Shown: positions 3,337 through 62,085, counted from the stretch's first letter. The stretch is 64,000 nt of DNA from Patescibacteria group bacterium (GCA_018829965.1 JAHJTG010000016.1:157537-221536); one strand, 5' to 3'. Notes: generated from the letters alone by a model not told the origin. Numbers and translations are program-made.

Positions 3337-3959
3337 TATTTCTTTTTCAATATAATTTTTTTAATTATCGTAAAGATTGTCTGAAAAAATATTCCGGCGT
3401 CAATAAAAAGCGAATTATTCTTAGCATATTTCACTCTTAGTTTATTCTTTTGAGGTTCAATCTTTTCTCGGTACGACTTATCTACATTTTCTTCATCTAT
3501 AAAATCTTCTTGATTTATATAATATATACTAGCATAATCTGTCATTCCCGGACTAACATTGAGAATTATTTTTTCCTCTTCGGTGTAAAGATCTACATAA
3601 TATTTAACTTGTGGACGAGGCCCAACAAAACTCATCTCTCCATTCAAAACATTAATCAACTGAGGGAGCTCATCAAGTTTAGATCTTCTTAAAAACTTTC
3701 CTATCTTTGTTATCCGGGGATCATTACGAGAAGCGTGTATCGTTCCTATTTTTTCAGCATTCGGAACCATTGTCCTAAATTTATAAATTTTGAAAATTTT
3801 GCCAAACTTACCGACTCTTTCTCCTTTATAAAAAACAGGACCTTTAGAATCTAATTTAACCAATAACCTGATAACAATTAGGAGGGGCGATAATAATATC
3901 AATCCCAATAAAGCAAAGATAAAATCAAGAATTCTTTTCAATACTAATTGGAATTTCAT
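3336..3959 (-). CDS. Initiating phosphoglycosyl transferase (bacterial sugar transferase, small PglC-like type)
   Basis: 207 aa with one N-terminal hydrophobic helix. Motifs YKFRTM and DELPQLINVLNGEMSFVGPRP. TAATG stop/start overlap with the capD-like gene. Confidence 0.9.
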   Translation of the reverse strand: MKFQLVLKRILDFIFALLGLILLSPLLIVIRLLVKLDSKGPVFYKGERVGKFGKIFKIYKFRTMVPNAEKIGTIHASRNDPRITKIGKFLRRSKLDELPQLINVLNGEMSFVGPRPQVKYYVDLYTEEEKIILNVSPGMTDYASIYYINQEDFIDEENVDKSYREKIEPQKNKLRVKYAKNNSLFIDAGIFFQTIFTIIKKIILKKK

Positions 3960-6586
3960 CTTAGTTTTTCCTTAATTAATCTTTGATATTCTTTTATCAT
4001 CATTTCAAAAATCAATTTTTCGTCAAACTCATTAACTACCTTTATTCTACCCTTTTTCCCCATTTCTTTCCCCTTTTCTGAATTCTCGAGAAAATAAATT
4101 AAGGCTTCAGTAAGTTTTTCGGGATTTCTTGCTGGTACCAAAATTCCTGTTTTGCCATCGTCAACTGCCTCACGACAACCCCGAACATCAGTTGCAACCA
4201 CTGGTTTTTCCATTGCCGAAGCTTCTAATATAGATAAACCCATTCCTTCTCTATACGACGGCAAAACAAAAATATCTATTAGAGGAAAAATTTCATCAAT
4301 ATCAGCTCTTGCTCCTAAAAATATTGCATTTTTCTCTATCCTATATTTCTTAAAAATACTTGAATCTATTCCGTCTTTTTTTTCCGGCTCTTCTGGTCCA
4401 ACTACCAAAAGCACAGTATTTGGAAATTTATCAAGAATATTCTTAAATGCTTTAAAAAGGTCTAAATATCCTTTTTCTTTAACCATTCTTGCTACAATTC
4501 CGATAATTTTGCTGTCTGGGTTAATGCCAAACTGTTTTTTTTCCTTAATAATGAACTTTTCTGAAAACCTATGAGGATTAAATTTTTCCAAATTAACCCA
4601 TCCTCCTAAATATTTTATTTTCTCAAGAGAGCATATTTTTTCTCCTACTGCCGTTTCAATATCTTCTTTATTAACGGATAGAATCAAATCAGAACACATG
4701 GCTGCGGTCTTTTCCACTAAAATAAACAGATTCCTTTTTAACCATGGATCTTTTTTTTGAAAATAAAAGCCGTGATTTGTGTGAATAATGATGGGCACCC
4801 CCGCCATTTTAGCCGCTATCTGGCCAATGAATCCGGCTTTTGGAGTATGAGTGTGAACGATATCAAATTTTTCTTTCTTAAAATAAAAAAACAGCCTGAC
4901 AAGGCTAATTAAATCGGAAATAGGGCTGAAAAGCTTTCTTTTAAATTTTATTGTTTTCACTTTAATATTCCTTTTCTCAATATCATTAACTAATTTCCCG
5001 GGCGAACAAACGCTTGAAACCTCGTATCCTTCTTTCTGTAATAATTTTATCTGGCTTAAAATTATAAACTTAATTGAAGAAGCAATATTAGTCACCTGAC
5101 AAACTTTAATTCTTTTATCCAAACTTCTAGTTTTCTCTTGGGATCCTATAAAACCAACTGGAATCAAACATAAAAGAGATATGAATGCTGGCATTCTAAT
5201 CCTCATCACTTGTCCAAAATTAGTAAAATATAAAGCAGTCATGCCAAATACTCCCAAACTAAAAACAATCAAAGGGATAGCGATTCTGTTTCGTTTGACA
5301 GAAACTATAGCTCCTTTAACTATAAAAAAGAGAAGAATATACCAAGGAATTGTTTCAACTAAGGCAAAAAGTTGCCGAGCATACTTCATATGCCATGGAA
5401 GAGGACCCAATAAACTATAAATACAAGACTTTAAATAATTTAATACAGACTTTAATGGTTTATCAAACTCCGTCTTTATAACTATTGTAGAATCATTCCC
5501 GGAAGGTAATGGTTCGAGTGATGGTCCAAGCGATGACTCAGACGATGGTTCAGGCGATGACTCAGACGATGGTTCAGGCGATGACTCAGACGATGGTTCA
5601 GGCGATGACTCAGACGATGGTTCAAATGATGACTCAAGTAGAGACGGAGGAATAAAAGCTACTTCTCGATAAAAAGTAATAGTTTCCGGCTTAAGAAAAT
5701 GTTTGAAAAGATTTATGCTGTAATATCCATGTCCGGCGAAAACTTGGAAAAGGAATCCAAAAAGAACGATGGCAACAACACCGTTAAATACTCTTTTCCT
5801 TAAATTAACCTTTGATAAAATAAACCAACAAAAAATAAAGGTGAAAATTATGGCATAGCTAATATAAAAACGGGAGTTAGTCAAAAGTCCTAAAAATAAA
5901 TAAAACAAGGCGAATTTTTTCCAAGTGAAACTTTCGATGAGCCTTAATAAAAACAATAAGCTAATTAACGAAAATAATATTACAAAACAATCTTTTAACA
6001 ATAAACTCCCGTAAAAAAGATAACTAGGATAAACACTAACTATTAAACCAATTAAAAAAGCCCATTTTTTAGAACCGCCGATTTTCCGAACTATTAAATA
6101 AATGAAAATGATCGAAAGAGCGACCACCCAAGCATTAAATATTTGACCAATAAGCATCTCGGGTAAGGTAAGCGCATATACATAACCGATGGCTATTGTA
6201 TGGTAAAGATATATTGTCTCTGATGTCGGACCTCCTGATACGTCTACATTTTCTAAAGAAAAATTCCATTGATGAACCCTACGCGCTATTTCTACGGCTT
6301 GCGGCTGATACTTTAAATAATCGCCTACTCCACCACTAAACGGCTGAAAATGAGCATAATGAACAAATAAAACTGTTCCGAAATGCATTAAAATAACAAT
6401 TAAAAAAAGCCAGACTAATAATTTTCCGCCTATCTTAAATTTTCGAAGGATATATAAAACAATTAAGCAAAGAAAAATAAGGAAGATAGATCCTACTACC
6501 AAAACTTTATCAAAAAAAGCAACTATCCCTAAAATTAGGATCGCTGAAATAATAAAGATTATGATTTTTTTACTTTTTGGGTACAT
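3956..6586 (-). CDS. Fusion protein: polytopic membrane domain (GT-C/ArnT-PMT-like or polymerase-like, unassigned) plus C-terminal GT4 glycosyltransferase
   Basis: 876 aa. Residues 1 to ~490 are about 12 hydrophobic helices with a loop carrying (SSESSPEP)n. Residues ~500-876 carry GT-B/GT4 motifs (HTHTPKAGFIGQ, PSYREGMGLSILEASAMEKPVVATDVRGCREAVDDGKTGILV). Confidence 0.8.
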   Translation of the reverse strand: MYPKSKKIIIFIISAILILGIVAFFDKVLVVGSIFLIFLCLIVLYILRKFKIGGKLLVWLFLIVILMHFGTVLFVHYAHFQPFSGGVGDYLKYQPQAVEIARRVHQWNFSLENVDVSGGPTSETIYLYHTIAIGYVYALTLPEMLIGQIFNAWVVALSIIFIYLIVRKIGGSKKWAFLIGLIVSVYPSYLFYGSLLLKDCFVILFSLISLLFLLRLIESFTWKKFALFYLFLGLLTNSRFYISYAIIFTFIFCWFILSKVNLRKRVFNGVVAIVLFGFLFQVFAGHGYYSINLFKHFLKPETITFYREVAFIPPSLLESSFEPSSESSPEPSSESSPEPSSESSPEPSSESSLGPSLEPLPSGNDSTIVIKTEFDKPLKSVLNYLKSCIYSLLGPLPWHMKYARQLFALVETIPWYILLFFIVKGAIVSVKRNRIAIPLIVFSLGVFGMTALYFTNFGQVMRIRMPAFISLLCLIPVGFIGSQEKTRSLDKRIKVCQVTNIASSIKFIILSQIKLLQKEGYEVSSVCSPGKLVNDIEKRNIKVKTIKFKRKLFSPISDLISLVRLFFYFKKEKFDIVHTHTPKAGFIGQIAAKMAGVPIIIHTNHGFYFQKKDPWLKRNLFILVEKTAAMCSDLILSVNKEDIETAVGEKICSLEKIKYLGGWVNLEKFNPHRFSEKFIIKEKKQFGINPDSKIIGIVARMVKEKGYLDLFKAFKNILDKFPNTVLLVVGPEEPEKKDGIDSSIFKKYRIEKNAIFLGARADIDEIFPLIDIFVLPSYREGMGLSILEASAMEKPVVATDVRGCREAVDDGKTGILVPARNPEKLTEALIYFLENSEKGKEMGKKGRIKVVNEFDEKLIFEMMIKEYQRLIKEKLR
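5508..5640. repeat. In-frame 24-bp tandem repeat (VNTR-like) inside the membrane/GT4 fusion gene
   Basis: The unit gatgactcagacgatggttcaggc is perfect at 5532-5555, 5556-5579 and 5580-5603. A fourth copy at 5604-5627 has 3 mismatches, and degenerate copies flank the array. It encodes FEPSSESSPEPSSESSPEPSSESSPEPSSESSLGPSLEP. Confidence 0.9.
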
Positions 6587-7454: not shown

Positions 7455-8456
7455 TTAAGATAAGATAATTTTTACTGCACCTAATAAGTTTTTGACGTAA
7501 TAATTGGATTCTAGATTTAAATTCTTAGACATTTTTCCTCCAATCTTAATCGTTTTAATATTCGCTTCTCTACCCACTATTATATCCCTCTCGTCATCGC
7601 CGACTATCCAACTTTTACTTAAATTGATGCCAAAATCCTTTACTGCTTTCAAAACCATCCCTATTTTAGGCTTACGGCAGGAACAATTGTCCTTCGCCTG
7701 ATGAGGGCAATAATAAATTTTATCAATTCTAATTCCCTTCTTCTTTAATTCCCTCAGCATCCATTGGTGAAGTTTTTTTAAATCGTTTTCTTTAAAATAT
7801 CCTCTCCCAACCCCAGATTGATCGGTCGCAATAATAATCTTATAACCTGTTTTTGACAATTTTTGCAGAGCTGGAATAACGCCTGAAGCGAATTTAAAAT
7901 CTTTTATTTTATTGACATATTCCGGCTTATTTATATTAATGGTGCCATCTCTATCCAAGAACACGGCTTTTATTTCTGGCGTAGAATAAACTTCCAATAT
8001 TTTTTGGACCAACTGGCTTGTTGAGGAATTTGCGTGAGATTTGAAGAAATAAACCCTGCCTTTATTTTGTTTTATCGTCTCCCGCTCAATAAAATCTTTC
8101 CCCCAATCCAAATCATGGCAATAAATATCCGGTTTAATCTTTTTTAAAATCTCTTTGGGCGTGATTTCATCAAATATGACGATGAAATCAATACATTCTA
8201 AGGCAGACAATATTTCTGCCCGTTCTTTTTGACAAATAATGGGCCTCTTAGGCCCTTTATAACTGCGAACTGACTCGTCGCTATTCAACATTACGATTAA
8301 AAAATCTCCTTGATTTTTAGCTTCCTTGAGTACCCTGATATGTCCTACATGGAGAATATCAAAACTGCCATTACAAGCAACTATTATTTTCCCTTGTTTT
8401 TTGAGCTTCCCAATAATTCTAACAATTTCTTTTTGATTTTTAATTTTAGAGTTCAT
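7455..8456 (-). CDS. hldC: Bifunctional heptose-1-phosphate adenylyltransferase (HldC/RfaE domain II-like) fused to D,D-heptose 1,7-bisphosphate phosphatase (GmhB-like HAD)
   Basis: 333 aa. The N-terminal half has a cytidylyltransferase-like HxGH motif (CNGSFDILHVGHIRVLKEAK). The C-terminal half has AVFLDRDGTIN (DxDGT), CSCRKPKIGM and GDDERD, which are GmhB hallmarks. Confidence 0.8.
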   Translation of the reverse strand: MNSKIKNQKEIVRIIGKLKKQGKIIVACNGSFDILHVGHIRVLKEAKNQGDFLIVMLNSDESVRSYKGPKRPIICQKERAEILSALECIDFIVIFDEITPKEILKKIKPDIYCHDLDWGKDFIERETIKQNKGRVYFFKSHANSSTSQLVQKILEVYSTPEIKAVFLDRDGTININKPEYVNKIKDFKFASGVIPALQKLSKTGYKIIIATDQSGVGRGYFKENDLKKLHQWMLRELKKKGIRIDKIYYCPHQAKDNCSCRKPKIGMVLKAVKDFGINLSKSWIVGDDERDIIVGREANIKTIKIGGKMSKNLNLESNYYVKNLLGAVKIILS

Positions 8457-9408
8457 TTTTTAGGTCTTTCTTAAGCTCTTCTAGAGAGACGACGGCTGTT
8501 CCTATTTTACCAACAACAATGCCAGCCGCATGATTAGCAAGCATAACTGCCTGGCCAAGATTAGCTCCAGAAACCAGCGCCAAGATAAGCGTAGCTGCCA
8601 CAGTGTCTCCCGCTCCAACAACATCAAATACTTCTTTTGCTTTTGTGGGAAAGTTTTTAACTCTGCTATTTTCGAAAAGAGTCATGCCCTTTGCTCCTCT
8701 CTTGATTAAAACATTGCAATTTAATTGTTTCTGAATTATCTTTCCCGCTTCCTTTATATCATCCGTACCGGCCATTGCCACAGCTTCTTTATTGTTGGGA
8801 ACCAAAAGAGTAATGTTTTTAAAATAGGAAAAGTGCGTTGGTTTTGTATCAGCAATAATGGTTTTTTTATATCTTCCGGCTAATTTAATTATTTTTTGAA
8901 TTAAATTTATTGTTACAATGCCTTTATTATAATCTGAGACAACTAAGCCATCCCAATCTTTAATATGAGAGGTGATAAAATCAATCGCTTGTTTTTCCTG
9001 ACGCTTGTTTATATCCTCTGTTTTTTCTTTATCGGCCCTTACTACTTGTTGATCTTTATCAACGACACGAATTTTTTGAGTAGTGACTCTATTCTTATCC
9101 GTAAAAATACCGTCTGTATTAACCTTTCCTTTTTTCAATTCAGAGATTAATTGCCTACCAGCAACATCAGATCCTACTACCCCAATAATAAAAACTTCTC
9201 CTCTAAGAGCAACAATATTATTAGCAGTATTTGCAGCACCGCCCGGAACGAAACTTTCTCTTGTAACTGAAACAACTGGAACAGGGGCTTCGGGAGATAT
9301 TCTTCTGACATCTCCCCACATAAAGTGGTCTAGCATTAAATCTCCTACCACCCCGATTTTCTTACCCTTAAAATTGTCGGCTATTTTACTTAGTTTATTT
9401 GTTTCCAT
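8446..9408 (-). CDS. hldA: PfkB-family sugar kinase, D-beta-D-heptose 7-phosphate kinase-like (HldA/RfaE domain I)
   Basis: 320 aa. IGVVGDLMLDHF N-terminus and the C-terminal GAGDTVAATL ribokinase-family motif. Adjacent to the hldC-gmhB-like gene and the GT9 gene. Confidence 0.8.
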   Translation of the reverse strand: METNKLSKIADNFKGKKIGVVGDLMLDHFMWGDVRRISPEAPVPVVSVTRESFVPGGAANTANNIVALRGEVFIIGVVGSDVAGRQLISELKKGKVNTDGIFTDKNRVTTQKIRVVDKDQQVVRADKEKTEDINKRQEKQAIDFITSHIKDWDGLVVSDYNKGIVTINLIQKIIKLAGRYKKTIIADTKPTHFSYFKNITLLVPNNKEAVAMAGTDDIKEAGKIIQKQLNCNVLIKRGAKGMTLFENSRVKNFPTKAKEVFDVVGAGDTVAATLILALVSGANLGQAVMLANHAAGIVVGKIGTAVVSLEELKKDLKNEL

Positions 9409-9409
9409 T

Positions 9410-10471
9410 TTAAAATTTAGATAAAACTTCTTTAATTTTGCCGAAAACTCGGTCGGGAGTTATCTTTTCTAAACAACTATGGACCCTTTCCCTATCATAA
9501 TTTTTATACGTATCAAGATTATAAGAATGCTCACAATTTTCTTTTAATATATATACATCTTCTCTATCAATCGGTGCTCCTCTTTTGGGGTCGGTGGGAC
9601 CGAATATTGAAACTAAATTAGTTTTTGTGGTTGAGGCAAGGTGATTGAGTCCGCTATCTGAAGAAACGAAAACTTTACATTTATTCATTAAAACAGCTAC
9701 TTGTTTTAATGAATATCCAGATATTACCATAGCATTCTTGTCTAACTCATTTTTTATTCCCAAACAGAGCTCTTCTTCTCCTCTCCCACCAAAAATCAAA
9801 ATAACTGCATTTGGAAAATTATATAATATCTTACGGCTTAATTCAATAAAATATTTTTGAGGCCATCTTTTGAATTTTTGATTCTCGCCGGAACCGGGAT
9901 GAAAACCAATTAAAATCTTATTGTTAAGACTATTTTTTATTAAAAAATTATCGGCAAATTCTTCATCTTTTGAGCTAACTTCTATAAACGGGGCAGGTAA
10001 AGGATAATCGATTCTCAAGCCAATAGCCCTTAATAGATCCATATCGCTTTCTGTCCTTTTTATATCTTGGCGCAAAAGAGAAGTGTGGGTATAGAACAAA
10101 CCGTTCTTACTTTTATTCTTTCTTTCTTCTCCCACCCTTACTTTCGCTCCGATAAAAAAACTTAAGATTTTTCCCTTTAATGGATGGAGGTCAGTTGGAG
10201 TAGTACTTAAATCATACTTTTCTTTTCTCAACCTATAAAGGAATTTTAATTTATTGAAAAAGCTATTCTTTGTCCAAGCAAACTCGAAAATTCTGTTGAC
10301 GGTTTCCCCTTCTTGCAGAACATGTCTTGACTCTGGTGTATATAAGACAAAAACATCTACCGTCGCCTTAGGGAAATTATTTCTTAAAATCCTTAAAACA
10401 GGGGTGAAGGCTATTAAATCCCCTATTCCAGCGGTATGAATTATTAAAATTTTCTTAAAGTTATAAACCAT
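9410..10471 (-). CDS. Glycosyltransferase family 9 (heptosyltransferase-like)
   Basis: ILIIHTAGIGDLIAFTPVLRILR and SSDSGLNHLAS are GT9 signatures. I placed the start at the internal Met (MVYNFKKIL, 10471). The track start at 10540 would overlap the upstream gene by 64 nt. Confidence 0.8.
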   Translation of the reverse strand: MVYNFKKILIIHTAGIGDLIAFTPVLRILRNNFPKATVDVFVLYTPESRHVLQEGETVNRIFEFAWTKNSFFNKLKFLYRLRKEKYDLSTTPTDLHPLKGKILSFFIGAKVRVGEERKNKSKNGLFYTHTSLLRQDIKRTESDMDLLRAIGLRIDYPLPAPFIEVSSKDEEFADNFLIKNSLNNKILIGFHPGSGENQKFKRWPQKYFIELSRKILYNFPNAVILIFGGRGEEELCLGIKNELDKNAMVISGYSLKQVAVLMNKCKVFVSSDSGLNHLASTTKTNLVSIFGPTDPKRGAPIDREDVYILKENCEHSYNLDTYKNYDRERVHSCLEKITPDRVFGKIKEVLSKF

Positions 10472-10476
10472 GGTTT

Positions 10477-11937
10477 TTAATATTCTCCATATCTTTCTCT
10501 CAAACTCCTTAAAAGAGGGAGGCGCAGAAGTTTTTTCCAAAAAATAGCCGAATAGGGTTTTGACATAAAATATGCCCTGAGAACCCGACCTAATATTTTA
10601 TGCATTGGCTTAAGGCCGTTGTAAACATAATAGTCGAACCAAATATAGTTTCTTTGTATTTGTTTTTTATTAAATCCTGGAAGATCTAAAGTAGCTTTCA
10701 TTCTTTCTATCTCTTCACCAGAAGATTCCTTTAACAAGCCTTTTTCTTTGCATAAAAAATATAAATCAGTCCCAGGATACGGGAAAAAAATGCCGGTAAG
10801 GTGCCAATCGGGCAGACATGTCCTGTTAATTTCCACTGTTTCTTTGAAATCAGCTACAGTTTCGCCTGGAAGTCCCACCATATTATAAAAAGCGACTTTC
10901 AAGCTATGCTTTCTCGCCAAGCTAACAGTATTAACAACATCTTTGTTTGAATAATTTCGTTTAAGTATTTCGCGACGAACTCTTTCACTCCCTGATTCTA
11001 ATCCAATATTGATAAACCTAAAATTAGCTTTTTTACAGGCGACAAGAAGATCTTCAAAATCTGCATTAGGCATAATTCTTAAATTCACTCCGAACGAAAG
11101 AAGTTGATTAACAGTTTTGTTAAAGCTCTCTAATTTTGAACATAATTCTATGGCCCATTTTTTATCTACCCCAAAACTTTCAACTTCTAAATATATCTCC
11201 CTTTTTTGCATTGGAAACCTAGCAATAATGTCTTTTATTTCTTCTATGATATTATCTGGCGATCTAAATCTGACATAAGAACCAGAAGCCAATTTTTTAA
11301 GAGCGTGATTGGAACAATAAGTACATTGAAACGGACAACCACGACCCAGTAAAACCGAATATCTTGCTCCTGGACGTTCTTTTGTCCACTCTTGCCACAT
11401 CTCTCTATCAGGAAAGGGCAAGCTGTCGAGATCTTGTAAAAACGGGCGCGGTAAGTTTTTTTCGATTTCAGAGCCACGCTTAATCCAAAGATTGGGAATA
11501 GTAGATGGCAAAACACCTTTTTCTAATTGAGAAACTAATTCCAGCGCAGGATTCTCGCCTTCACCAACACATAAAGCATCAAAGCCGTCTGATAGAATGC
11601 CGTTTGGATTTAAAGAAACGTACGGTCCGCCAACTAATAGATAAATATTCGGCCATTTTTCTTTTATATATTTTGCTATATTCGCAATAAATTGATATTC
11701 AGTGCTTACAGCGGTAAAGCAAATTAATTCAGGCGAAAATTTCTTTAAATATTCATCTAAAATATGCCTATTGTTTTTCGGCGAAGTCCTAGACAAAACA
11801 ATCATTCTTGTCTGGTGACCGTGCTTTTTTAAAAATGAGGAGATGTAAGATATCCCGAATTGTATTTGTTCTGGCGATTCTAACGGTTTAGCCAATGAGC
11901 CAACAATATTCAATGAATAAATAAAAAGAATTTTCAT
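10477..11937 (-). CDS. B12-binding-domain radical SAM enzyme (class B, putative methyltransferase)
   Basis: 486 aa. An N-terminal Rossmann-like B12-binding-type region (LICFTAVSTEY...LLVGGPYVS) is followed by GRGCPFQCTYCSN (CxxxCxxC) near residue 200. Confidence 0.8.
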   Translation of the reverse strand: MKILFIYSLNIVGSLAKPLESPEQIQFGISYISSFLKKHGHQTRMIVLSRTSPKNNRHILDEYLKKFSPELICFTAVSTEYQFIANIAKYIKEKWPNIYLLVGGPYVSLNPNGILSDGFDALCVGEGENPALELVSQLEKGVLPSTIPNLWIKRGSEIEKNLPRPFLQDLDSLPFPDREMWQEWTKERPGARYSVLLGRGCPFQCTYCSNHALKKLASGSYVRFRSPDNIIEEIKDIIARFPMQKREIYLEVESFGVDKKWAIELCSKLESFNKTVNQLLSFGVNLRIMPNADFEDLLVACKKANFRFINIGLESGSERVRREILKRNYSNKDVVNTVSLARKHSLKVAFYNMVGLPGETVADFKETVEINRTCLPDWHLTGIFFPYPGTDLYFLCKEKGLLKESSGEEIERMKATLDLPGFNKKQIQRNYIWFDYYVYNGLKPMHKILGRVLRAYFMSKPYSAIFWKKLLRLPLLRSLRERYGEY

Positions 11938-12007
11938 ATTTACCTCGACGGCGAGAATACCCCGTTCTTTAGATCGGAGGTGAAAAACGTGATTACGCCG
12001 ATAACAA

Positions 12008-13975
12008 CTATAATGCTTTTATTCTATTTTTAAGTATATCCATGCCCCCTAATTCTAAAAACCTGACAATATTTCTCAAGGATAAATCTTTCTTACCGTC
12101 TGGAGTTAAATGATATTCGGCGAAGGAAACAAATTCTTTAGGACGATAAATTTCTAATTCAATAACGTTCTTATTGGCAAATTTTTGATCACTGGTCACT
12201 ATAGAAACAACTTCACCCGGATATTTCACTGTTATCCGCTTCTCACCTTCTAAAAAATCTTTGCACAATAAAAGATTTGAAAGCTCAATCACATTACTCA
12301 TAACAGCCTGATTGAAAATATTCTTTGATTTGAGTTTTTCAGTTACAATTGTTTCCATTTCTTTTTGCAGAGCTTTAAGAATTTCCGGATCCTGATACAC
12401 CAAGGCGATGTAAAAAAAATTCAATTTCATAAAACCATTAACCAGCTTATTATAATTTTCAGGCTGTTCATAAAAAGAGATCATCTCTTCCTTGGTTTCA
12501 AACCATTCTTCCTTAGATTCTTTTTTTATACGGTCAAAAAGATTTCTCAGCATGGGATTTTTTGTCTGAGAAAGCTCACCTACAACCATTTCGGGATTAA
12601 TTCCTTGTTTTTTAGCTAATAATAAGATGGGTTTGAATATACCGGTGTTCCAGATAAAAAATATAAGCCAGTGTTGAACTTTAAAGTTATTCATTTCTTC
12701 CTCTGACATATCTTTCGTTGCCCTGACAGATTCTTCTGTCTCAAACACTATCTTGTTGTCGTATTTTCCATAGGCGCCGAAAATTGGCCTGTATTTTGTC
12801 TTAACCTCATATTTTTGGCGATATTCATCGCTTTCATATTTCGTGCCGTGTAAAAGCCTGATGTTAAACGGGCCGACATAATCAAATCCCATATCAAAAG
12901 CAGTTGAAAGAGTATTGTAATGACTCTCCGGAGTCTCACCAGGCAAACCTATAAGAATATCTGTCCCTACGTCGATATTTTTATTATGGTAATAATCGAG
13001 TTGTTCTTTTATGCTACTTATTTTTATAGCGCCCCGACCAATATTATCAAGAACTTTCGGGTCTGCTGATTGCAAGGCAATTAATCCTCTATTATTTCTT
13101 CCTAAAAGCTCGGATATTTCTATATTCCGTTTTGATGTATTTTTTGATTGCCAAACGGTTACATTTGTAGGATATCCTTTTTTATCCATGATATTACGTA
13201 CCTTTTTTGCAATTTCCAAGTCTCTCGGCAAGATTCCAAAATTACTATCGCAAAATATCCAAGTAAGCTGGCCTGCTGATTTTTCAGCTATATAATCAAT
13301 TTCTTCTAATACTTGATTAAGCGGTCTTACTCTTATCCTTGGAAGCATTGCTCCCCAAGCGCAATAGACGCACCGGTAAGGACATCCCCTATTGGTTTCC
13401 AGAAGAGGAATCATATTGGGGTCAGTTAAAAACTGATCCAGCCATCCTGTGAGATAAGGACTTGGCTGGTTTATCTCCAAACTTCTTTCGCGCAACGGCT
13501 CTGGGGTATAAAAAAACTCCCCATTGATAATAGTAGCACAGCCCATGGGGTGCGGTTTAACAGACCCTTTTAAAACTTCTCCCACAATTCTTGCAAATGG
13601 TTCTTCGCCTTCATATATGATGTAATAATCAAGATTTTTGTGTTCAGTGAGGAACTTTTTAATATCAGCGGGCTCCATTCTAATATTTGGTCCTCCCATT
13701 ACTGTCAACGTCTTTGGGCTTAGGCGCTTAACCATGTCTAAAAAAAGAAAGCCGAGCCTCGCATTCCAGCTGTAATGACTTAAAGCTAAAATATCAGGAG
13801 GATTTTCAAGAAGAGCTTTTTCAAGAATATCCGGATATTTAAAAAGTTTGATATTAACTTCTTGTCCGAATTTTTTTTTAATAAATGCTGCCATATACCC
13901 TATATTTAAGGGCGTGACATAATTTGTTTTAATAGTGTTATACACTAAATCGGCAAGATATATATTTAGGGCCAT
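12008..13975 (-). CDS. B12-binding-domain radical SAM enzyme (class B) with long C-terminal extension
   Basis: 655 aa. PDILALSHYSWN...TVMGGPNI is followed by NRGCPYRCVYCAWG (CxxxCxxC) near residue 198. Confidence 0.8.
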   Translation of the reverse strand: MALNIYLADLVYNTIKTNYVTPLNIGYMAAFIKKKFGQEVNIKLFKYPDILEKALLENPPDILALSHYSWNARLGFLFLDMVKRLSPKTLTVMGGPNIRMEPADIKKFLTEHKNLDYYIIYEGEEPFARIVGEVLKGSVKPHPMGCATIINGEFFYTPEPLRERSLEINQPSPYLTGWLDQFLTDPNMIPLLETNRGCPYRCVYCAWGAMLPRIRVRPLNQVLEEIDYIAEKSAGQLTWIFCDSNFGILPRDLEIAKKVRNIMDKKGYPTNVTVWQSKNTSKRNIEISELLGRNNRGLIALQSADPKVLDNIGRGAIKISSIKEQLDYYHNKNIDVGTDILIGLPGETPESHYNTLSTAFDMGFDYVGPFNIRLLHGTKYESDEYRQKYEVKTKYRPIFGAYGKYDNKIVFETEESVRATKDMSEEEMNNFKVQHWLIFFIWNTGIFKPILLLAKKQGINPEMVVGELSQTKNPMLRNLFDRIKKESKEEWFETKEEMISFYEQPENYNKLVNGFMKLNFFYIALVYQDPEILKALQKEMETIVTEKLKSKNIFNQAVMSNVIELSNLLLCKDFLEGEKRITVKYPGEVVSIVTSDQKFANKNVIELEIYRPKEFVSFAEYHLTPDGKKDLSLRNIVRFLELGGMDILKNRIKAL

Positions 13976-27547: not shown

Positions 27548-28378
27548 TTATCTTTTTGAGAATTTTTCGGGATCATCGATTCCTTGATCCTTCATTAGTT
27601 TATTATTAATCTCCTCCACTACTTTATGGATTTTTAAATCAACACCTTGTTCATCTGCAAATTGGATTAAAGCTTTAATGTCTTTCGGCAAACATTTCTT
27701 GCCGTATCCCCTATAGTCTCCGTAATAAATATTTAAATGACTAGGGCCTATTCTTTTATCCATTGAAGCGCATTCTCTCACTTCGTCGTAGTCAATGCCG
27801 ACTGCCTTGCATAAATCGTACATTTGATTGCCAAAAATAACTTTTGTTGAAAGAAATGTATTGCCGAAATATTTAACCATCTCTGCTTCAGTCGCCCTAA
27901 TAATCTTTTCAAAGGGAGCTTTCGGCAAAATAGACAAAACTTTTTCAGCTGATTCACGGCTGGAATCTGTATAGCCGACTATTTGTCTATCCGGGTTTTC
28001 CATACATTCATCCGCTTTTTCTTCAATTAAAAATTCTGGATTGAACAAAAACTTATGCTGAGGATATTTTTGCTGAAATTTTTCCGTAGTGCCAAGTAAA
28101 ACAGTTGATTTAATCACTATTGTTTTATTTCCGGAGATACTTGAACAAGCGTCTTCAACATAAGATAAATCAAATCCTTTTTCCTTATCAAATGGGGTCG
28201 GGACACAGATAAAAATAATATCGGCTTGGTTCACTTCTTCAGTAGAGCCCTTATTTTTTCCATTGTCGTAAAAAAATACCTTATATCCTACTTTATCAAA
28301 ATATCTTTTTAACGCTCCGCCAATCATTCCTAGACCCATTATTCCTATTTTTAAATCTTTTAAATTTTTGTTCTTCAT
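27548..28378 (-). CDS. UDP-glucose/GDP-mannose dehydrogenase-family protein, short form lacking the C-terminal UDP-binding domain
   Basis: 276 aa. IGIMGLGMIGGAL NAD-binding loop and the catalytic-Cys motif GKKCLPKDIKAL (compare GGxCxxKD). The protein ends about 30 aa after it. Confidence 0.65.
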   Translation of the reverse strand: MKNKNLKDLKIGIMGLGMIGGALKRYFDKVGYKVFFYDNGKNKGSTEEVNQADIIFICVPTPFDKEKGFDLSYVEDACSSISGNKTIVIKSTVLLGTTEKFQQKYPQHKFLFNPEFLIEEKADECMENPDRQIVGYTDSSRESAEKVLSILPKAPFEKIIRATEAEMVKYFGNTFLSTKVIFGNQMYDLCKAVGIDYDEVRECASMDKRIGPSHLNIYYGDYRGYGKKCLPKDIKALIQFADEQGVDLKIHKVVEEINNKLMKDQGIDDPEKFSKR

Positions 28379-35915: not shown

Positions 35916-37562
35916 TTATTTTTCCTTTAATAAACCAGCTTCCCACTTAGGAAGCTTTTTTTGCTCAGGATCGATAAAAACTTCACAGAAGATAGGACCA
36001 TCAAAATCTAATACAGATTTTATTTTATCTAAATCCTTTCCATTTTTTATCGATTCGTATTTTATTCCCCAAGCAGGAGCTAATTTACTCCAATCAGGAA
36101 ATCCGACTCCTGAGCTTTTATCACAGGCAAAAACTTTGTTGAAGAACTTCAAATGGGTGTTTCTTATGGAATAATACCCTCCATTATTGAATAAAAATAT
36201 CTTTATCGGGAGCTTGTGATAAATCACTGTTTGTAGTTCCTGAATATTCATCATAATTGAACCGTCCCCCTCCAAACATATCACCGGCTTCTTATTATTA
36301 GCGATGCAAGCTCCGATTGACATTGGAAGTCCTTTACCCATTTCGCCGAAAGCAGTATTAGTAATCAATCTTTGCCCCTTTTTCAGTTTCAATGCCTGAT
36401 GTGGCGTTTCTGCGACCATGCCGTTTGAAGTAATTACTGAATAATCGCATTTTCCGCTTAAAGTTTCTAAAAACTGATAAGCGTCAACATATTTATTATT
36501 TGCTTCGTAAGAAACAGGCTTTTTCTCAATATCCCATCTTTTCAATTTAATATCCTGTTTTAACGTTCCTTCTAGAAAATCTTTAGCATCAACACAAACA
36601 GGAGTATCAATTTTTAATGTCCTTTTATATAGCTCAGCCTTATCTATATCAACCATTATCTTAACAGCATTTTCAGCAAACTTTTTATACTCAAAAGAAG
36701 TATTCCTGATTTGCATTCTCGTTCCAACGATAAGAAGCAAATCGCAATTATCAAATGCATAGTTTGCAGTTTCTACCCCCGATAATCCCTGTTCCCCTAA
36801 ATAGTACGGATAATCATCATTCACTAAATCAGTTCCGCTCATTGCCGAAACAACATTAATTTTTGTTTTTTTAATAAATTCCCATAGTTCTGGAACTGCG
36901 CCAGCTAACCTAATCCCATTCCCAACTATCATTAAAGGTTTTTTAGCTTTATTTAAAGCTTCTATTATTTCTTTGAAAGGGATATTATATTTCGGTTTTT
37001 CCGGCGCTTCAAAACCAATCAAATTATTTTCGTCAATTTCGGCACATTGGACATCCAAAGGAATCTCAAGCCAGACAGGCCCCGGCTTTCCTGATTTGGC
37101 CAGATAACAAGCTTTCTCAAGGTGATACTTTATTTCATCCGGGTTCTCAACGCAAACTGCATATTTTGTTATCGGCTTTACAACATCCAGCAAATTTATT
37201 TCCTGTGGCTCTCCTAACCTTCTCAATCCGTTTTCTATGTCTTCCCTAGTAAGCTTTATCTCTTTCCTGACCTGCCCAGAAATAATCATCATCGGGATTC
37301 CATCAACCCAAGCAGCAGCAACCCCAGTGATCGTATTCGTCCCTCCAGGACCCGTTGTAACGCTTGCAACGCCGATTCTATTGCTTATCCTTGAATAACC
37401 TTCGGCGGCAAGAGCACAGGACTGCTCATGATGGCAACAATAAGAATCCAGTTGGGACTTCCCGATGGAATCAACTGTATGCATACATCCTCCTCCCGAA
37501 ACAAGAAAAATGCTGTCTGTAATTTTTTCTAAATGTTTTACTAAATAGTCGCTTAATTTCAT
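35916..37562 (-). CDS. Thiamine-diphosphate-dependent enzyme, acetolactate-synthase large-subunit-like (YerE-like candidate)
   Basis: About 548 aa. TGPGGTN, and a ThDP-binding GDGS motif (CLEGDGSIMMNIQELQT...NNGGY). Start placed at the internal Met (MKLSDYLVKHL, 37562); the track start is 37595. Confidence 0.85.
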   Translation of the reverse strand: MKLSDYLVKHLEKITDSIFLVSGGGCMHTVDSIGKSQLDSYCCHHEQSCALAAEGYSRISNRIGVASVTTGPGGTNTITGVAAAWVDGIPMMIISGQVRKEIKLTREDIENGLRRLGEPQEINLLDVVKPITKYAVCVENPDEIKYHLEKACYLAKSGKPGPVWLEIPLDVQCAEIDENNLIGFEAPEKPKYNIPFKEIIEALNKAKKPLMIVGNGIRLAGAVPELWEFIKKTKINVVSAMSGTDLVNDDYPYYLGEQGLSGVETANYAFDNCDLLLIVGTRMQIRNTSFEYKKFAENAVKIMVDIDKAELYKRTLKIDTPVCVDAKDFLEGTLKQDIKLKRWDIEKKPVSYEANNKYVDAYQFLETLSGKCDYSVITSNGMVAETPHQALKLKKGQRLITNTAFGEMGKGLPMSIGACIANNKKPVICLEGDGSIMMNIQELQTVIYHKLPIKIFLFNNGGYYSIRNTHLKFFNKVFACDKSSGVGFPDWSKLAPAWGIKYESIKNGKDLDKIKSVLDFDGPIFCEVFIDPEQKKLPKWEAGLLKEK

Positions 37563-37576
37563 AAAAATATAGCCAA

Positions 37577-39094
37577 TTAATCTATTTTTAACCAATGGGT
37601 TAATTGAGTTTTTCTATTCTTATTTTCCATTATCTTATTATCGTAATAAAAAGAATCGTCCTTGAAATGAGTGGTTGATATTTCTTCAAGAATAGCGCCG
37701 TTTTTTGTTCCAAAACTGTGCTTCGCCCCTCTCTGGATTAAAACAATCTCTCCCGTCTTATATTCTTTTTCTTTTCCATCAAGATTTATACCCAAGTTTC
37801 CATATAGAATCTGAAAACTTTCTTCTTTTTGCTTGTGAAGATGAACGGGATGATTCTGGCCGGGAAATAGAACAATCAGTTTTTTGCAGTATTCCCTGTT
37901 AACGCAATTGAAAATAACCGCTCCGTGTTTATAAAAATTATCTATTCCGTAATGATGAGACACTTCCACCTCTAATTTATCAGGAAGAGCTATTTTTGCC
38001 TCCTCTAAAAACTTCCTGGCTTCAGTTATAATCTTATATACTTTTTCTCTGTTATTTGACGCTTTGACATCGGAAAAAAATATTGAAGCGTTTTTCTTTA
38101 TATCCTTCTCAGAAAAATAATCAATATATTTTGACATATTGTTTGCCAGCAATTGATTATCTATATTCGGCCAGGCAAAAAATGTATTAGATGTGTTTAT
38201 TTTATCGCCTTTTATTATTTGTTTCTTAGCAAAAACTCCTCTTTGGAATTGCCTTAAATCAGCCAACTCTTTTTCAGAAAATCCCGCTCTTTTGTGAAAA
38301 ATACCACAAGTAGTAAATGTTTTTTGAGCTGCTTCTAACCATTGCTCGATTTGCGATGGCGTTGCGGAATAATTATTAAGTTCAATTCCTTCAACTTTTA
38401 TCCCGACATGTTTTTCAAAAATAGTTGCTCCTTTGGCAGTAGCTATTTTGATTGAATCAAAATTATCAGGACTTTCATGGGTGGAATAACCGATTTCCAC
38501 TTCAGGATACCGCTTTTTTAATAAATCGATTTGATTCAGTTGGATATTTTCCGGTAAAGTCGGGTATTCTCCAACACAGTGCATTAAAGAAAGCTTTTTT
38601 CCTCTATGCCCAAGAAAGCTAACTACTTTATCTATATCTTCCAGGGACACTCCGGCAACAGAAACAATAATCGGTTTATCTGTTTTAACGATTTTTTCTA
38701 AAAGTGGCCAATCAGTAAAAGAACAGCTAGCTATTTTAATAAAATCGAAATTAAGCTTCTCAATTAGATCAACTGAGTTTTCATCAAAGGGGGTACAGAT
38801 AGAAATAAATCCCAGTTTATCAATTTCGTCTTTCAGAATTTTAAATTCCTCTTCTTTCAGCTTCGTCTCTGAAAATCGCTTCACGTATTTCAAATCAGTC
38901 CTGTTCTGATAATCCGGATGGATAAAGGTCGGGATATCACGGGATTGCAGCTTGAAAGCAAAATTGAAGGAGAATTTTTTACTTACCTTGTGAATTTCTC
39001 TGATGATTCTCAATCCATGCTCAACCTTACCTTGATGATTGTTGGCCATCTCAAATATGAATAATGGCCTTTGTTGAATGTTTTTTATAGACAT
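37577..39094 (-). CDS. NeuB-family ulosonate synthase with SAF domain fused to a C-terminal cupin (D-lyxose/mannose-isomerase-like)
   Basis: About 505 aa. NeuB motifs FIFEMANNHQG, FKLQS, CTPFDENS, IKIASCS, MHCVGEYPT, GYSTHE and FEKHV. SAF-like FQRGVFAKKQIIKGDKI. The last ~120 aa read FPGQNHPVHLHKQKEESFQILYG...GAKHSF (cupin His/Glu pattern). Start placed at the internal Met (39094); the track start is 39133. Confidence 0.8.
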   Translation of the reverse strand: MSIKNIQQRPLFIFEMANNHQGKVEHGLRIIREIHKVSKKFSFNFAFKLQSRDIPTFIHPDYQNRTDLKYVKRFSETKLKEEEFKILKDEIDKLGFISICTPFDENSVDLIEKLNFDFIKIASCSFTDWPLLEKIVKTDKPIIVSVAGVSLEDIDKVVSFLGHRGKKLSLMHCVGEYPTLPENIQLNQIDLLKKRYPEVEIGYSTHESPDNFDSIKIATAKGATIFEKHVGIKVEGIELNNYSATPSQIEQWLEAAQKTFTTCGIFHKRAGFSEKELADLRQFQRGVFAKKQIIKGDKINTSNTFFAWPNIDNQLLANNMSKYIDYFSEKDIKKNASIFFSDVKASNNREKVYKIITEARKFLEEAKIALPDKLEVEVSHHYGIDNFYKHGAVIFNCVNREYCKKLIVLFPGQNHPVHLHKQKEESFQILYGNLGINLDGKEKEYKTGEIVLIQRGAKHSFGTKNGAILEEISTTHFKDDSFYYDNKIMENKNRKTQLTHWLKID

Positions 39095-39098
39095 ATTA

Positions 39099-40121
39099 TT
39101 ATTCGTAATATTTTTTAAGCCGCTCGGCATCATTAATAGTTATAACATCTTCTGGAAACAATCTATGTTTAACTATTTTGCATTTTGCACATATTTCTCC
39201 TACGTTTTTGATACCATCCAGCATTTTGCACCTAAACCCTTGAAACTCCTTGCCATTCCATATTTCAGATACTGATTGATTGTTGCAATCACCAACAAAA
39301 CCAGGAAATTCATAAGAATAACAAGGGATTACTTTCCCATCGGTATTAATTCTCAGTGTAAAAAATGGCTGTGGGCAAACTAACACATCTGAAGCTGGCA
39401 ACCCGAATTGAGTAACCGATTTGTCTTCACCTTTTAACACTTTCCCGTAATCTACATTCGGCTGGATCGGAACAATATGTTCAATAGCAATGATATCGCA
39501 AATATCCCCAAAAAGCTTATAAAACCTTTCTTCGTCCTCTTTATTTTCTAATGCTTCATCTACGATTTTGATATAAAGTTTAGTGTTCTTTTTCTTATTA
39601 TCAAAAAAATATCGCAGATTCTCAACAAAATTTTCGAAATCTATGTCCACTCCAGACACTTCTTTATACTTTTCTTTTGTCGTCCCCTGCAATGATACGA
39701 TCAATCTTGAAAGCCCAGCTGAAATAAGCGAATCTGACATCTCGGGAGTTAAAAGCGAGGCGTTTGTTAATATCTCTATGTCATTGGTAATATTTTTTAA
39801 AGCGGCGTATTCCACCATATCAGCTATATTTTTATGCAGGAGGGGCTCGCCAATTCCTGAAAAACGCAATATCTTCAATTTATCAGGAAAAAGAACAATG
39901 TCATTTATGCATTTTTTATACAAGCCGAAATCCATAATAATCTTATCTGAAATAAAATTCCGCTCTTCTTTTTTCACCGACATCATGCAATATTTGCAAG
40001 TAAAGTTGCAGGCATGCATTGGATATATTTCTATCATAAAAGGAGTGTTCAAAGGAAGCACTTCTGCAAGCTTCTTTCTTTTTCCTCCCGGCGCTTGTCC
40101 GCTGATATTTTTTGCCTTCAT
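39099..40121 (-). CDS. Radical SAM enzyme with C-terminal SPASM/twitch-type Cys-rich domain
   Basis: 340 aa. YPMHACNFTCKYC (CxxxCxxC). C-terminal Cys pattern VCPQPFF...GKVIPCYSY...GDCNNQ...CAKCK. Confidence 0.85.
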   Translation of the reverse strand: MKAKNISGQAPGGKRKKLAEVLPLNTPFMIEIYPMHACNFTCKYCMMSVKKEERNFISDKIIMDFGLYKKCINDIVLFPDKLKILRFSGIGEPLLHKNIADMVEYAALKNITNDIEILTNASLLTPEMSDSLISAGLSRLIVSLQGTTKEKYKEVSGVDIDFENFVENLRYFFDNKKKNTKLYIKIVDEALENKEDEERFYKLFGDICDIIAIEHIVPIQPNVDYGKVLKGEDKSVTQFGLPASDVLVCPQPFFTLRINTDGKVIPCYSYEFPGFVGDCNNQSVSEIWNGKEFQGFRCKMLDGIKNVGEICAKCKIVKHRLFPEDVITINDAERLKKYYE

Positions 40122-40125
40122 TTGT

Positions 40126-41208
40126 TTAACTTATATTAAATGGTTTTTTAGTTTTATCCTTATCAGTGAAAACTTCGGAACAAGGAACTGGAAGTGGCTT
40201 TCCATAAATCTTTTTCACTAAATAGTTATCAATAAAATTCCTATCTTCTGCAATAGTACACGTATCAACATACTCACCAAAATATTTAATATCTAATCCC
40301 CTTTTGATTATGTCTTTCAAGGGCTCTTCAAAAACATTGCCGATGGACGTATGAATATACGGACAAGGCAAAACGTCTCCATATTGGGTCACAGATATCA
40401 TTCCTTTAACTCCTATACAGCCCATATTAATGCCATAGGCCGGAGTTAAATGAGTATAAACATTATATTTCTTTTCAAGGTTGTTTCTCATATAATCTAT
40501 ATCGTCCTTATTAACCAAAATATCAAAATTACCCTCCCAAGAACCAACCGGCTTTGCATAAGTTACAAACACTCCAATCCCTCTTTTATTGAAATATTCA
40601 ATAAATTTGATGAATTCGTCTGAATAAAGCCTCTGTTTTGTAACAACAGTTTGAATAAAAATATTCAAACCTGCCGCTAAAGTCGCGTCAACCGCTTTCA
40701 TTGCCCTTTCGTGCGCACCTTTAGCTTTCCTAAAACTATCGTGTTCTTTAGCATCAAGACTGTCTATGCTTAATTGGACTCTATCAACGCCTATCTCTCT
40801 AAGATGCTTGGCTTTTTTTTCATCTAAAAACCATCCATTAGTATCAACATTAATATAGAATTTTTGAGGGTCAATAGCTTTAACTAATTCATCAAAATCC
40901 GGAAATACTAATGGTTCTCCGCCTGTAATCACAAAGCGCGCCAAACCTATCTCGTCGGCCTGCCGGCTGAGATTTTTTACATCATCCATAGTAAATTGCC
41001 GCTTTTCATTTCTACCTTGAAATTTCTTTACCGAGCAGTGTTGACACTGAAAATTACAAACGTAATTATATTGAAACTGAATAATAGCAATACTTTCTCC
41101 ACGTTTAATCTTTTCATCAAATTTCATAATTTTTTCATAGACATACGGCTTTTCTTCTTTCAAACGATTTCTTTTTTCTGCTTCTAATTTTTGCTGATTT
41201 ATTGGCAT
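40126..41208 (-). CDS. Radical SAM enzyme (MoaA/NirJ/PqqE-like) with twitch/SPASM-like C-terminus
   Basis: 360 aa. QYNYVCNFQCQHCS, ITGGEPLV, and C-terminal GCIGVKGMISVTQYGDVLPCPY...DTC. Confidence 0.85.
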   Translation of the reverse strand: MPINQQKLEAEKRNRLKEEKPYVYEKIMKFDEKIKRGESIAIIQFQYNYVCNFQCQHCSVKKFQGRNEKRQFTMDDVKNLSRQADEIGLARFVITGGEPLVFPDFDELVKAIDPQKFYINVDTNGWFLDEKKAKHLREIGVDRVQLSIDSLDAKEHDSFRKAKGAHERAMKAVDATLAAGLNIFIQTVVTKQRLYSDEFIKFIEYFNKRGIGVFVTYAKPVGSWEGNFDILVNKDDIDYMRNNLEKKYNVYTHLTPAYGINMGCIGVKGMISVTQYGDVLPCPYIHTSIGNVFEEPLKDIIKRGLDIKYFGEYVDTCTIAEDRNFIDNYLVKKIYGKPLPVPCSEVFTDKDKTKKPFNIS

Positions 41209-58600: not shown

Positions 58601-58641
58601 ACAATAACATTAAACCCCTCTCGACGTAGTGTCAAGAGGGG
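58601..58641 (-). terminator. Putative intrinsic terminator after 58666-59232
   Basis: In gene sense, the CCCCTCT/AGAGGGG stem (58635-58641 pairs with 58615-58621) has a 13-nt loop that contains GAC/GTC pairing. It is followed by TTTAATGTTATTGT running into the HTH start codon. Confidence 0.5.
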
Positions 58642-58665
58642 TCAAAAGGTATCAATTGCCTATTA

Positions 58666-60405: not shown

Positions 60406-60438
60406 ATTTTATTTACATTTTATTTACATTTTATTTAC
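60406..60438. repeat. Perfect 11-bp x3 tandem repeat filling the intergenic gap
   Basis: attttatttac at 60406-60416, 60417-60427 and 60428-60438. The third copy contains the stop codon (60435-60437) of the upstream gene. The first copy ends 1 nt from the ATG at 60404. Confidence 0.85.
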
Positions 60439-61822: not shown

Positions 61823-61844
61823 AAAAAATCCCCTTCGAGGGGGA
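61823..61844 (-). terminator. Putative intrinsic terminator
   Basis: In gene sense, TCCCC-CTCGAA-GGGGA (61844-61829) is followed by TTTTTT (61828-61823). Confidence 0.55.
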
Positions 61845-62005: not shown

Positions 62006-62013
62006 TTTTATAT

Positions 62014-62043: not shown

Positions 62044-62085
62044 GGAGTTTGCTTTTTATGTATTTAATTTATATCATAAAAATAT

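Follow-up and report, generated by a model that had tools for sequence, protein, structure and literature searches.

Radical S-adenosylmethionine (SAM) enzymes that depend on cobalamin have been described chiefly in pathways for antibiotics, cofactors, lipids and protein modification. TokK and ThnK, which alkylate carbapenems at C6, and CysS, which extends an alkoxy group of cystobactamid, are sequential C-methylases of this kind (PDB 7kdx/7kdy and 9n1b-d), and MgmA is the methyl-coenzyme M reductase glutamine C-methyltransferase (PDB 9ccb; PMC11796369). In the 3'-deoxygenation of apramycin a radical SAM diol dehydratase, AprD4, is paired with AprD3, a reductase of the short-chain dehydrogenase/reductase (SDR) type (PDB 6fd2). 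A 2026 review of the cobalamin-dependent class leaves polysaccharide, glycan and heptose unmentioned, and our literature searches returned nothing relevant that links radical SAM enzymes with nonulosonic, legionaminic or pseudaminic acid or with O-antigen. Here we describe three radical SAM proteins with N-terminal B12-binding domains, A (10477-11937), B (12008-13975) and C (55913-57334), that are encoded in a 64,000-nucleotide stretch of DNA from a Patescibacteria group bacterium (GCA_018829965.1, JAHJTG010000016.1:157537-221536), which we call the window. B is predicted to be a C-methylase of the TokK/CysS type, and the neighbours of its gene in other genomes place it with the synthesis of nonulosonic acids of the pseudaminic/legionaminic (Pse/Leg) type rather than with the heptose genes beside which it lies here.

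A, B and C are minus-strand open reading frames (ORFs) of 486, 655 and 473 residues; the features given below are on the minus strand of the window unless another strand is stated. Each protein carries a Radical_SAM domain (PF04055) in its middle, with Pfam E-values of 1e-23 for A (84.7 bits), 1e-15 for B and 1.5e-22 for C (80.9 bits). The N-terminal B12-binding domain (PF02310, gathering score 32.1) scores 58.0 bits in A and 85.2 in C. In B the score is marginal, at 30.0 bits, a doubt that is resolved by the full-length match of B to TokK and its superposition on the cobalamin domain of that enzyme. The cluster motif is CPFQCTYC in A (C201/205/208), CPYRCVYC in B (C198/202/205) and CPHNCTFC in C (C204/208/211), and its cysteines do not vary across alignments of 17, 20 and 15 homologues, respectively. 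An earlier reading of the window, made from its sequence without database searches and called here the sequence-only reading, had proposed just this arrangement of a B12-binding-type domain followed by CxxxCxxC at about residue 200, and the Pfam matches and alignments confirm it, at a level well above what chance would give. By this architecture, as judged from sequence, A, B and C are class-B radical SAM enzymes.

Which class-B family do they belong to? All three score below the cut-offs of the curated NCBIfam families, and none falls into a subfamily with a known unrelated role. The comparators that the sequence-only reading had named did not hold up: against the PhpK model the three proteins give 48-111 bits (cut-off 600) and against that of the hopanoid methylase HpnR 23-86 bits (cut-off 650), and the models for GenK and Fom3 are not among the top NCBIfam matches. 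Among the three, A is nearer to C (29% identity, hhalign E 1e-33) than to B (21%, E 6e-18).

The nearest solved proteins to B are TokK (E 4e-36) and CysS (E 3e-31), as found by phmmer against the PDB. In TokK, ThnK and CysS the described cofactor features are an A-x-S-x-Y-x-W motif whose Trp lies under the cobalt, a Trp after the Cys loop and a D-A-N at the GGE position (PMC9204698; PMC13331322). All three have counterparts in B: A64-L-S66-H-Y68-S-W70 aligns to A70xS72xY74xW76 of TokK, W207 aligns to W215, the Trp one residue past the Cys loop, and D243-S244-N245 aligns to D250-A-N252, the family consensus being DAN. Among 20 B orthologues S66, Y68, W70, W207, D243 and N245 are invariant, and A64 and S244 vary. 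The AlphaFold 2 model of B is confident (predicted local distance difference test score, pLDDT, 90.3), and in Foldseek comparisons all three of its domains superpose on TokK with template modelling (TM) scores of 0.75-0.77 in both directions, and on CysS with 0.70-0.73. Since B shares its cofactor motifs and predicted fold with TokK, ThnK and CysS, it can reasonably be predicted to carry out cobalamin-dependent C-methylation in a sugar pathway; on the same motifs and model, B probably works like a C-methylase of the TokK/CysS type, yet constitutes a separate, unnamed family. The sequence-only reading had expected C-methylated or otherwise radical-modified sugars from the three enzymes. C-methylation is supported as a prediction for B, but not established for A or C.

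B is not confined to this lineage. Full-length relatives at 48-59% identity occur in other phyla, including Phycisphaerae, Sedimentisphaerales and Pirellulales, and at least 595 stretches among the GTDB species genomes encode a relative. We fetched 79 genome loci with B relatives and compared their ORFs with every protein of the window; counts are over 78 of these loci. Thirteen distinct loci hold a B relative at least 47% identical, and a PseB-like gene, a gene for NeuB or cytidine monophosphate (CMP)-nonulosonate synthetase, or both, lie in the fetched flanks of 10 of the 13. In Planctomycetota the gene order is PseB-like dehydratase, DegT aminotransferase (51-54% identical to that of the window), Pse-associated methylase, B and CMP-nonulosonate synthetase, with WbqC and NeuB further on. 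Homologues of the Pse-associated methylase, 52-55% identical, adjoin B in three loci (L007, L015 and L016), in L003/L007, L010 and L015 the gene directly downstream of B is that for the CMP-synthetase, and on a 430-kb Joint Genome Institute (JGI) contig B stands amid NeuB, CTP_transf_3, PseB-like and PglD-like genes. In four Patescibacteria relatives (L004-L006 and L009) B is directly upstream of the genes with which the locus of the window begins, for a toroid protein, DUF6580, the PseB-like dehydratase, C, an SDR and DegT. In the window itself the nonulosonate module is intact, with the Pse-associated methylase where the neighbour of B would be, and B is 42 kb away. We conclude that the conserved functional partner of B is the nonulosonate pathway, and that its place beside heptose genes looks like a local rearrangement. 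A separate observation concerns the Patescibacteria locus L004, where two tandem B paralogues (8053-11965, plus strand; 68% and 78% identical to B) are preceded by a 558-residue B12-binding radical SAM protein of yet another family, 23% identical to A.

The Pse-like module that the sequence-only reading had placed around C is borne out by the profile matches. It begins with a PseB-like UDP-GlcNAc 4,6-dehydratase (57328-58335; Polysacc_synt_2, Pfam 316 bits), which scores 309.7 bits against the PseB model TIGR03589 (cut-off 407.75). C follows, and then an extended SDR of RmlB/GalE/LegB-like type (54988-55929), a DegT-type sugar aminotransferase similar to PseC/LegC (53882-55006; Pfam 438.7 bits), the pseudaminic acid biosynthesis-associated methylase (53197-53868; TIGR03587, 158.6 bits, cut-off 112.05), a CMP-nonulosonate synthetase-like cytidylyltransferase (52446-53216; Pfam CTP_transf_3) and a NeuB-family nonulosonate synthase (51388-52449; Pfam NeuB, 286 bits, plus SAF). 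A hexapeptide acyltransferase, WbqC and PIG-L complete this Pse/Leg-type module.

If B methylates through cobalamin, where would the cofactor come from? The sequence-only reading had pointed to a corrinoid requirement in a window that has no cobalamin synthesis genes; that point is answered within the window by a riboswitch and an uptake-like cassette, both of which that reading had missed. At the head of the locus lies a cobalamin riboswitch aptamer (61892-62033; RF00174, 39.0 bits, gathering score 31.5), which in a local search matches the full model (1-189) with an E-value of 2e-8 and is the sole gathering-level Rfam element in the window. It is situated in a divergent intergenic region, 113 nucleotides upstream of the start of the gene at 60435-61778 and on the same strand, and a terminator-like hairpin with a T-run (61830-61842) between aptamer and start codon is a candidate expression platform. 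The first gene after the riboswitch encodes a secreted alpha/alpha-toroid with a C-terminal type I dockerin (60435-61778; SQHop_cyclase_C, Prenyltrans and Dockerin_1), a candidate for the corrinoid-binding alpha domain. It is followed by a membrane-anchored protein with a C-terminal DUF4430 (59262-60404; PF14478, 57.5 bits) and by a DUF6580 polytopic membrane protein (58666-59232; PF20221, 170 bits), a candidate corrinoid transporter. A strong terminator-like hairpin of 13 pairs (58613-58643) ends the set, and because terminator-like hairpins bracket these three genes we take them as the riboswitch-controlled unit.

Vertebrate transcobalamins have DUF4430 as their C-terminal domain (PMC4350170). 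In a Patescibacteria relative (L006 8142-9941, plus strand) toroid repeats and DUF4430 are joined in one secreted chain of 599 residues, a transcobalamin-like architecture; a second, small transmembrane DUF4430 protein and DUF6580 come after the fused gene, and an AdoCbl-II riboswitch lies between B and the toroid-DUF4430 gene. In two Pelagibacteraceae single-cell loci (L063, 930-5587; L070, 3268-12109) DUF6580 and a B-like radical SAM gene lie downstream of an AdoCbl-II riboswitch, in the order riboswitch, TonB-dependent receptor, DUF6580 and B-like gene in the former and with a second B-like gene before the riboswitch in the latter. SAR11 is generally portrayed as a group that does without B12, and loci that join a riboswitch with B12-binding radical SAM genes are unexpected there. 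No gathering-level riboswitch was found in L004 or L005. Scans of six larger-genome loci (L007, L010, L083, L084, L086 and L087) likewise gave no riboswitch, so that the coupling between riboswitch and uptake genes was seen only in Patescibacteria and SAR11.

Searched against PDB sequences, the toroid protein of the cassette matches squalene-cyclase and prenyltransferase repeats and no transcobalamin, and DUF6580 and the DUF4430 protein have no match even at E-values of 10 and 1. DUF6580 bears a weak resemblance to the S-components of energy-coupling factor (ECF) transporters (E 2e-4). Literature searches gave nothing relevant on transcobalamin-like proteins with a riboswitch and no paper that mentions DUF6580. 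It is a speculation of ours that the N-terminal extracellular part of the DUF4430 protein is a cohesin-like partner of the dockerin, so that both halves of the binder would be held together at the cell surface; Pfam has no cohesin match there at an E-value of 0.1. From the predicted domains and the riboswitch we infer a riboswitch-repressed system for corrinoid capture and import, and thus scavenging rather than synthesis.

C belongs to a narrow clade of about 70 clusters at least 55% identical, mostly from Patescibacteria and Omnitrophota, beyond which the next matches fall to 34%. The triad of PseB-like dehydratase, C and SDR occurs in six loci from two phyla (the window, L004, L005, L009, the Omnitrophota locus L086, and L087), of which L004 shows the PseB-like gene and C only, as the locus ends there, and every context of C that we have seen lies within a nonulosonate cluster. 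In Planctomycetota, which lack C, the aminotransferase follows directly after the dehydratase, and for this reason C and the SDR look like a two-gene insertion at the 4-keto-6-deoxy-N-acetylhexosamine (HexNAc) stage.

What C does at that stage is less clear-cut, and here the best-surviving alternative arises. C, and possibly A, could resemble AprD4 and be a radical SAM enzyme that dehydrates a sugar without cobalamin; it would abstract a hydrogen beside a hydroxyl and eliminate water, with the SDR reducing the keto-deoxy product, so that the nonulosonate precursor would be deoxygenated once more. Over its full length the AlphaFold 2 model of C (pLDDT 86.8) matches the fold of AprD4 best (TM 0.71/0.74, E 1.2e-22), and AprD4 is also matched by sequence (E 3.3e-15). 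C is always followed by an extended SDR, and this AprD4/AprD3-like pairing, by analogy, favours dehydration. That said, the lead of AprD4 is small, since MgmA, TsrM, OxsB and TokK all come near an E-value of 1e-20 in the fold comparison, and by sequence the nearest solved protein is MgmA (9ccb, E 1.6e-18). The AprD4 family model NF033070 gives 62.1 bits against a cut-off of 500 and aligns with the core only (residues 181-362). The strong PF02310 score of the N-terminal domain (85 bits) and the corrinoid cassette, which in the Patescibacteria lineage is immediately upstream of the PseB-like gene and C, favour the use of cobalamin by C. Carbon mapping also speaks against dehydration at one position, in that loss of the hexose 3-OH would remove the pyranose ring-closing oxygen of the nonulosonate. 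We consider the dehydratase reading unlikely on balance.

A belongs to a cross-phylum family. Its orthologues, about 60% identical, come from Planctomycetota, Margulisbacteria, Omnitrophota, Elusimicrobia, Chloroflexota, Saganbacteria and Nanoarchaeota, and each of their contexts is a polysaccharide cluster (80 metagenome loci and three annotated contexts were examined, with neighbours tallied in 23 orthologue loci). The commonest neighbours in the 23 loci are other B12-binding radical SAM paralogues (8) and GT4 glycosyltransferases (7), with GT2, PseB-like SDRs and FkbM methyltransferases also present. De novo clustering of neighbours returned no tight conserved partner, only the generic GT4/GT2, FkbM and B12-binding radical SAM paralogues. 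The nearest solved protein by sequence is again MgmA (E 6e-19), and the best NCBIfam model is HpnJ at 108 bits (cut-off 578).

The sequence-only reading had set A and B beside a heptose module, and their position there is correct. A adjoins a set of genes of plausibly heptose type (7455-10540) consisting of a GT9 glycosyltransferase (9410), a PfkB kinase (8446) and a fusion of a cytidylyltransferase-like domain with a HAD domain (7455). It is therefore natural to ask whether A and B C-methylate a nucleoside diphosphate (NDP)-heptose or a heptosylated glycan, the adjacency of the two genes then reflecting a two-step radical modification of heptose. The genes are co-directional with the module, and some distant relatives of A, about 30% identical, do stand beside GT9 and PfkB genes in six loci (L120, L130, L137, L146, L147 and L156), which keeps a heptose link weakly alive for the wider A branch. 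The functional link does not follow the position, however. GT9, PfkB and HldE-like nucleotidyltransferase/HAD genes are found in 0, 0 and 1 of the 78 loci with B relatives and are absent from the close A loci, and an A orthologue is paired with a B orthologue in no locus other than the contig of the window (79 B loci, 80 metagenome A loci and three more A loci). The closest relative of A on a long contig (L088, 77% identical) is followed directly by a homologue of the GT4-PMT gene (43% identical) with no heptose genes between the two, as if the heptose module had been inserted in the window. A heptose role for the pair appears quite improbable to us.

Two loci with A orthologues deserve separate mention. 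In a Planctomycetota locus (L083 5252-11458) an A orthologue 61% identical comes directly after genes for a Fom1-like fusion of cytidylyltransferase and phosphoenolpyruvate mutase, a phosphonopyruvate-decarboxylase-like thiamine pyrophosphate (TPP) enzyme, an iron alcohol dehydrogenase (Fe-ADH) and Glyphos_transf; this fosfomycin-like early-pathway set sits in a glycan cluster with four B12-binding radical SAM genes. A general Fom3-like role for A was considered and rejected, as the window and the other A loci have no phosphonate genes and the PhpK and Sden_1168 models score low. In L093 (11385-13727, plus strand) the neighbour of the A orthologue is a 781-residue fusion of a B12-binding radical SAM protein with a C-terminal class I SAM methyltransferase.

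The weakest alternative, that A and/or C use cobalamin for radical chemistry other than methylation and rearrange a sugar, for instance by a ring contraction as in HpnJ/OxsB or a cyclisation as in BchE, has in its favour that HpnJ, which acts on a hopanoid-linked amino sugar, and BchE are the top NCBIfam similarities (HpnJ 108 bits for A and 144 for C; BchE 96 and 150), but these scores are far under the cut-offs of 481-578, the window has no hopanoid or chlorophyll genes and the nearest solved relative by sequence is a methylase, so that we hold it to be very improbable.

The explanation that we prefer has B and C in the nonulosonate pathway, A in glycan tailoring and the corrinoid obtained by scavenging; taken as a whole it falls, in our judgement, just on the probable side. 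By the mechanism of TokK, ThnK and CysS, a first SAM would methylate cob(I)alamin, a second would give a 5'-deoxyadenosyl radical, an unactivated sp3 carbon would lose a hydrogen to that radical, and the resulting substrate radical would then receive the methyl group from methylcobalamin. B would act in this way in the Pse/Leg-type pathway (50-58 kb) and not on heptose, adding at least one C-methyl group, possibly iteratively, like TokK and CysS; the acceptor would be the nonulosonate or a substituent on it, or else the 6-deoxy-hexosamine from which it is made. A candidate target is the methyl group placed by the Pse-associated methylase, by analogy with the extension of a methoxy group by CysS. 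C and the SDR would act on UDP-4-keto-6-deoxy-HexNAc, between dehydratase and aminotransferase, through either a radical methylation or a radical dehydration. A would be a glycan-tailoring enzyme that moves across phyla together with glycosyltransferases. The riboswitch would control a split, transcobalamin-like surface binder (toroid and DUF4430) and the DUF6580 transporter, by which the corrinoid would be scavenged.

Several points weigh against this explanation. What is shown for A, B and C is their domain architecture, motifs, predicted folds and gene contexts; all of their substrates, the use of cobalamin by A and C and the transport function of the cassette are predictions. Two of the 13 B orthologue loci (L011 and L014) have no nonulosonate genes and many B relatives at 28-41% identity have no recognisable glycan neighbours, which is why the assignment to the nonulosonate pathway covers the orthologous group of B and not its whole superfamily branch. 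In the window the role of B may have been re-purposed, given that its gene adjoins heptose genes, far from the nonulosonate module. B scores 160.9 bits against the KedN5 family model NF033712, whose cut-off is 700, and is not a member. TokK and CysS use pantetheinylated substrates from antibiotic pathways, and that of B is presumably a sugar or nucleotide sugar. A and C offer no diagnostic cobalamin motif: hhalign aligns Thr79 and Ile89, respectively, with the position under the cobalt, residues that do not separate methylases from non-methylases, and the top fold match of C, AprD4, is not known to use cobalamin. Finally, a B12 enzyme encoded outside the window, such as a class II ribonucleotide reductase, could be the one that the riboswitch cassette supplies.

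The wider setting of these genes is a locus of about 58 co-directional minus-strand genes that runs from 61.8 kb down to 1.5 kb with a GC content of about 0.32, all of which were covered by the Pfam and NCBIfam scans. The window has its match in a metagenome contig of run ERR2191545. With an initiating transferase (Bac_transf), a PglF-like dehydratase, GT2, GT4 and GT9 glycosyltransferases and an ABC exporter (Wzm/Wzt-like), it is the main surface-glycan locus of a bacterium of the Patescibacteria (candidate phyla radiation, CPR), and a very large one at about 60 kb. The sequence-only reading counted ten conventional methyltransferases, and that count is right (6590, 19810, 20777, 22822, 23438, 24173, 24974, 25769, 50252 and 53197). 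It overlooked three further radical SAM genes, none with a B12 domain, which bring the number in the locus to six: a gene with a SPASM domain (39099-40121) and two others (40126-41208 and 41231-42457). Beside this row are a NeuB-cupin fusion (37577-39133), with a TPP enzyme near it (35916-37595), and genes for an NT5C-like protein, DUF386 and GNAT. The region of the NeuB-cupin fusion, the TPP enzyme and the three radical SAM genes has the look of another nonulosonate-like sub-pathway, an unusual one. A Phycisphaerae nonulosonate operon likewise contains a radical SAM-SPASM homologue (L003 14902-15963).

Other genes of the window can be described more briefly. An 876-residue fusion (3956-6586) joins an N-terminus resembling a polytopic PMT_2-type glycosyltransferase to a GT4 glycosyltransferase. 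An ORF of the UDP-glucose/GDP-mannose dehydrogenase family (27548-28378) is short, at 276 residues, having a truncated NAD domain at its N-terminus and lacking the C-terminal one; it could be part of a gene, or its start may be wrongly assigned. Genes cross both ends of the window: on one side a large polytopic membrane protein (62080-64000, plus strand), divergent from the riboswitch, and on the other a secreted protein of more than 485 residues (2-1456), which is downstream of the locus and runs off the window.

A broader proposal is that the TokK-like, cobalamin-dependent methylases of the B family form a widespread and so far uncharacterised clade devoted to nonulosonic acids, making C-alkylated (methyl, ethyl or isopropyl-type) Pse/Leg, and that ultra-small Patescibacteria keep the riboswitch-controlled split binder and DUF6580 largely to feed these enzymes. 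We offer this as a tentative idea that is unlikely to hold in full. If it were true, C-alkylated Pse/Leg would be a sugar chemistry not yet described and a new set of surface-sugar structures, and the enzymology of TokK and CysS would gain a soluble substrate of the nucleotide-sugar type. It would also mean that a Patescibacteria episymbiont with a reduced genome devotes about 60 kb, six radical SAM enzymes and a vitamin that it scavenges to the decoration of its surface, a matter of relevance to how such cells attach to hosts and evade phages. Testable candidates for a new route of corrinoid uptake are the DUF6580 and toroid/DUF4430 genes linked to the riboswitch, with DUF6580 as a candidate new family of transporters.

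Compared with known systems, the cassette resembles two. Its toroid and DUF4430 would correspond to the two parts of eukaryotic transcobalamin and intrinsic factor, an alpha6-alpha6 barrel and a C-terminal beta domain, but the two domains are on separate proteins, one of them with a dockerin, and binding is predicted from sequence. It resembles the riboswitch-controlled B12 uptake systems of bacteria (BtuB, ECF-CbrT, BtuM) in that a small polytopic membrane protein follows. Among the enzymes, A, B and C share the class-B architecture of GenK, Fom3, PhpK and HpnP/HpnR, a group in which some members act on sugar or cytidylylated substrates, but they are members of none of these families; against the HpnJ, BchE, PhpK, HpnR and MgmA equivalogs the best scores of A and C are 108-150 bits, with cut-offs of 360-650. 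A and C are like MgmA in their B12-binding domain, radical SAM core and similar length. They differ in that the substrate of MgmA is a protein, in methanogens, whereas A and C lie in glycan loci, and they score 85-92 bits against its model TIGR04014 (cut-off 360). For C the best fold match, by a small margin, is AprD4, an enzyme that acts on an amino sugar and whose pairing with an SDR parallels that of C with its downstream gene; C is set apart by its strong PF02310 domain and by the unmet AprD4 family model. B, like TokK and CysS, has a Rossmann cobalamin domain, a radical SAM core and a C-terminal helical domain; unlike them, at an identity of about 20%, it belongs to a nonulosonate/surface-glycan operon and not to an antibiotic gene cluster. 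On its motifs and predicted model, B is structurally of the TokK/CysS type, in a new pathway context.

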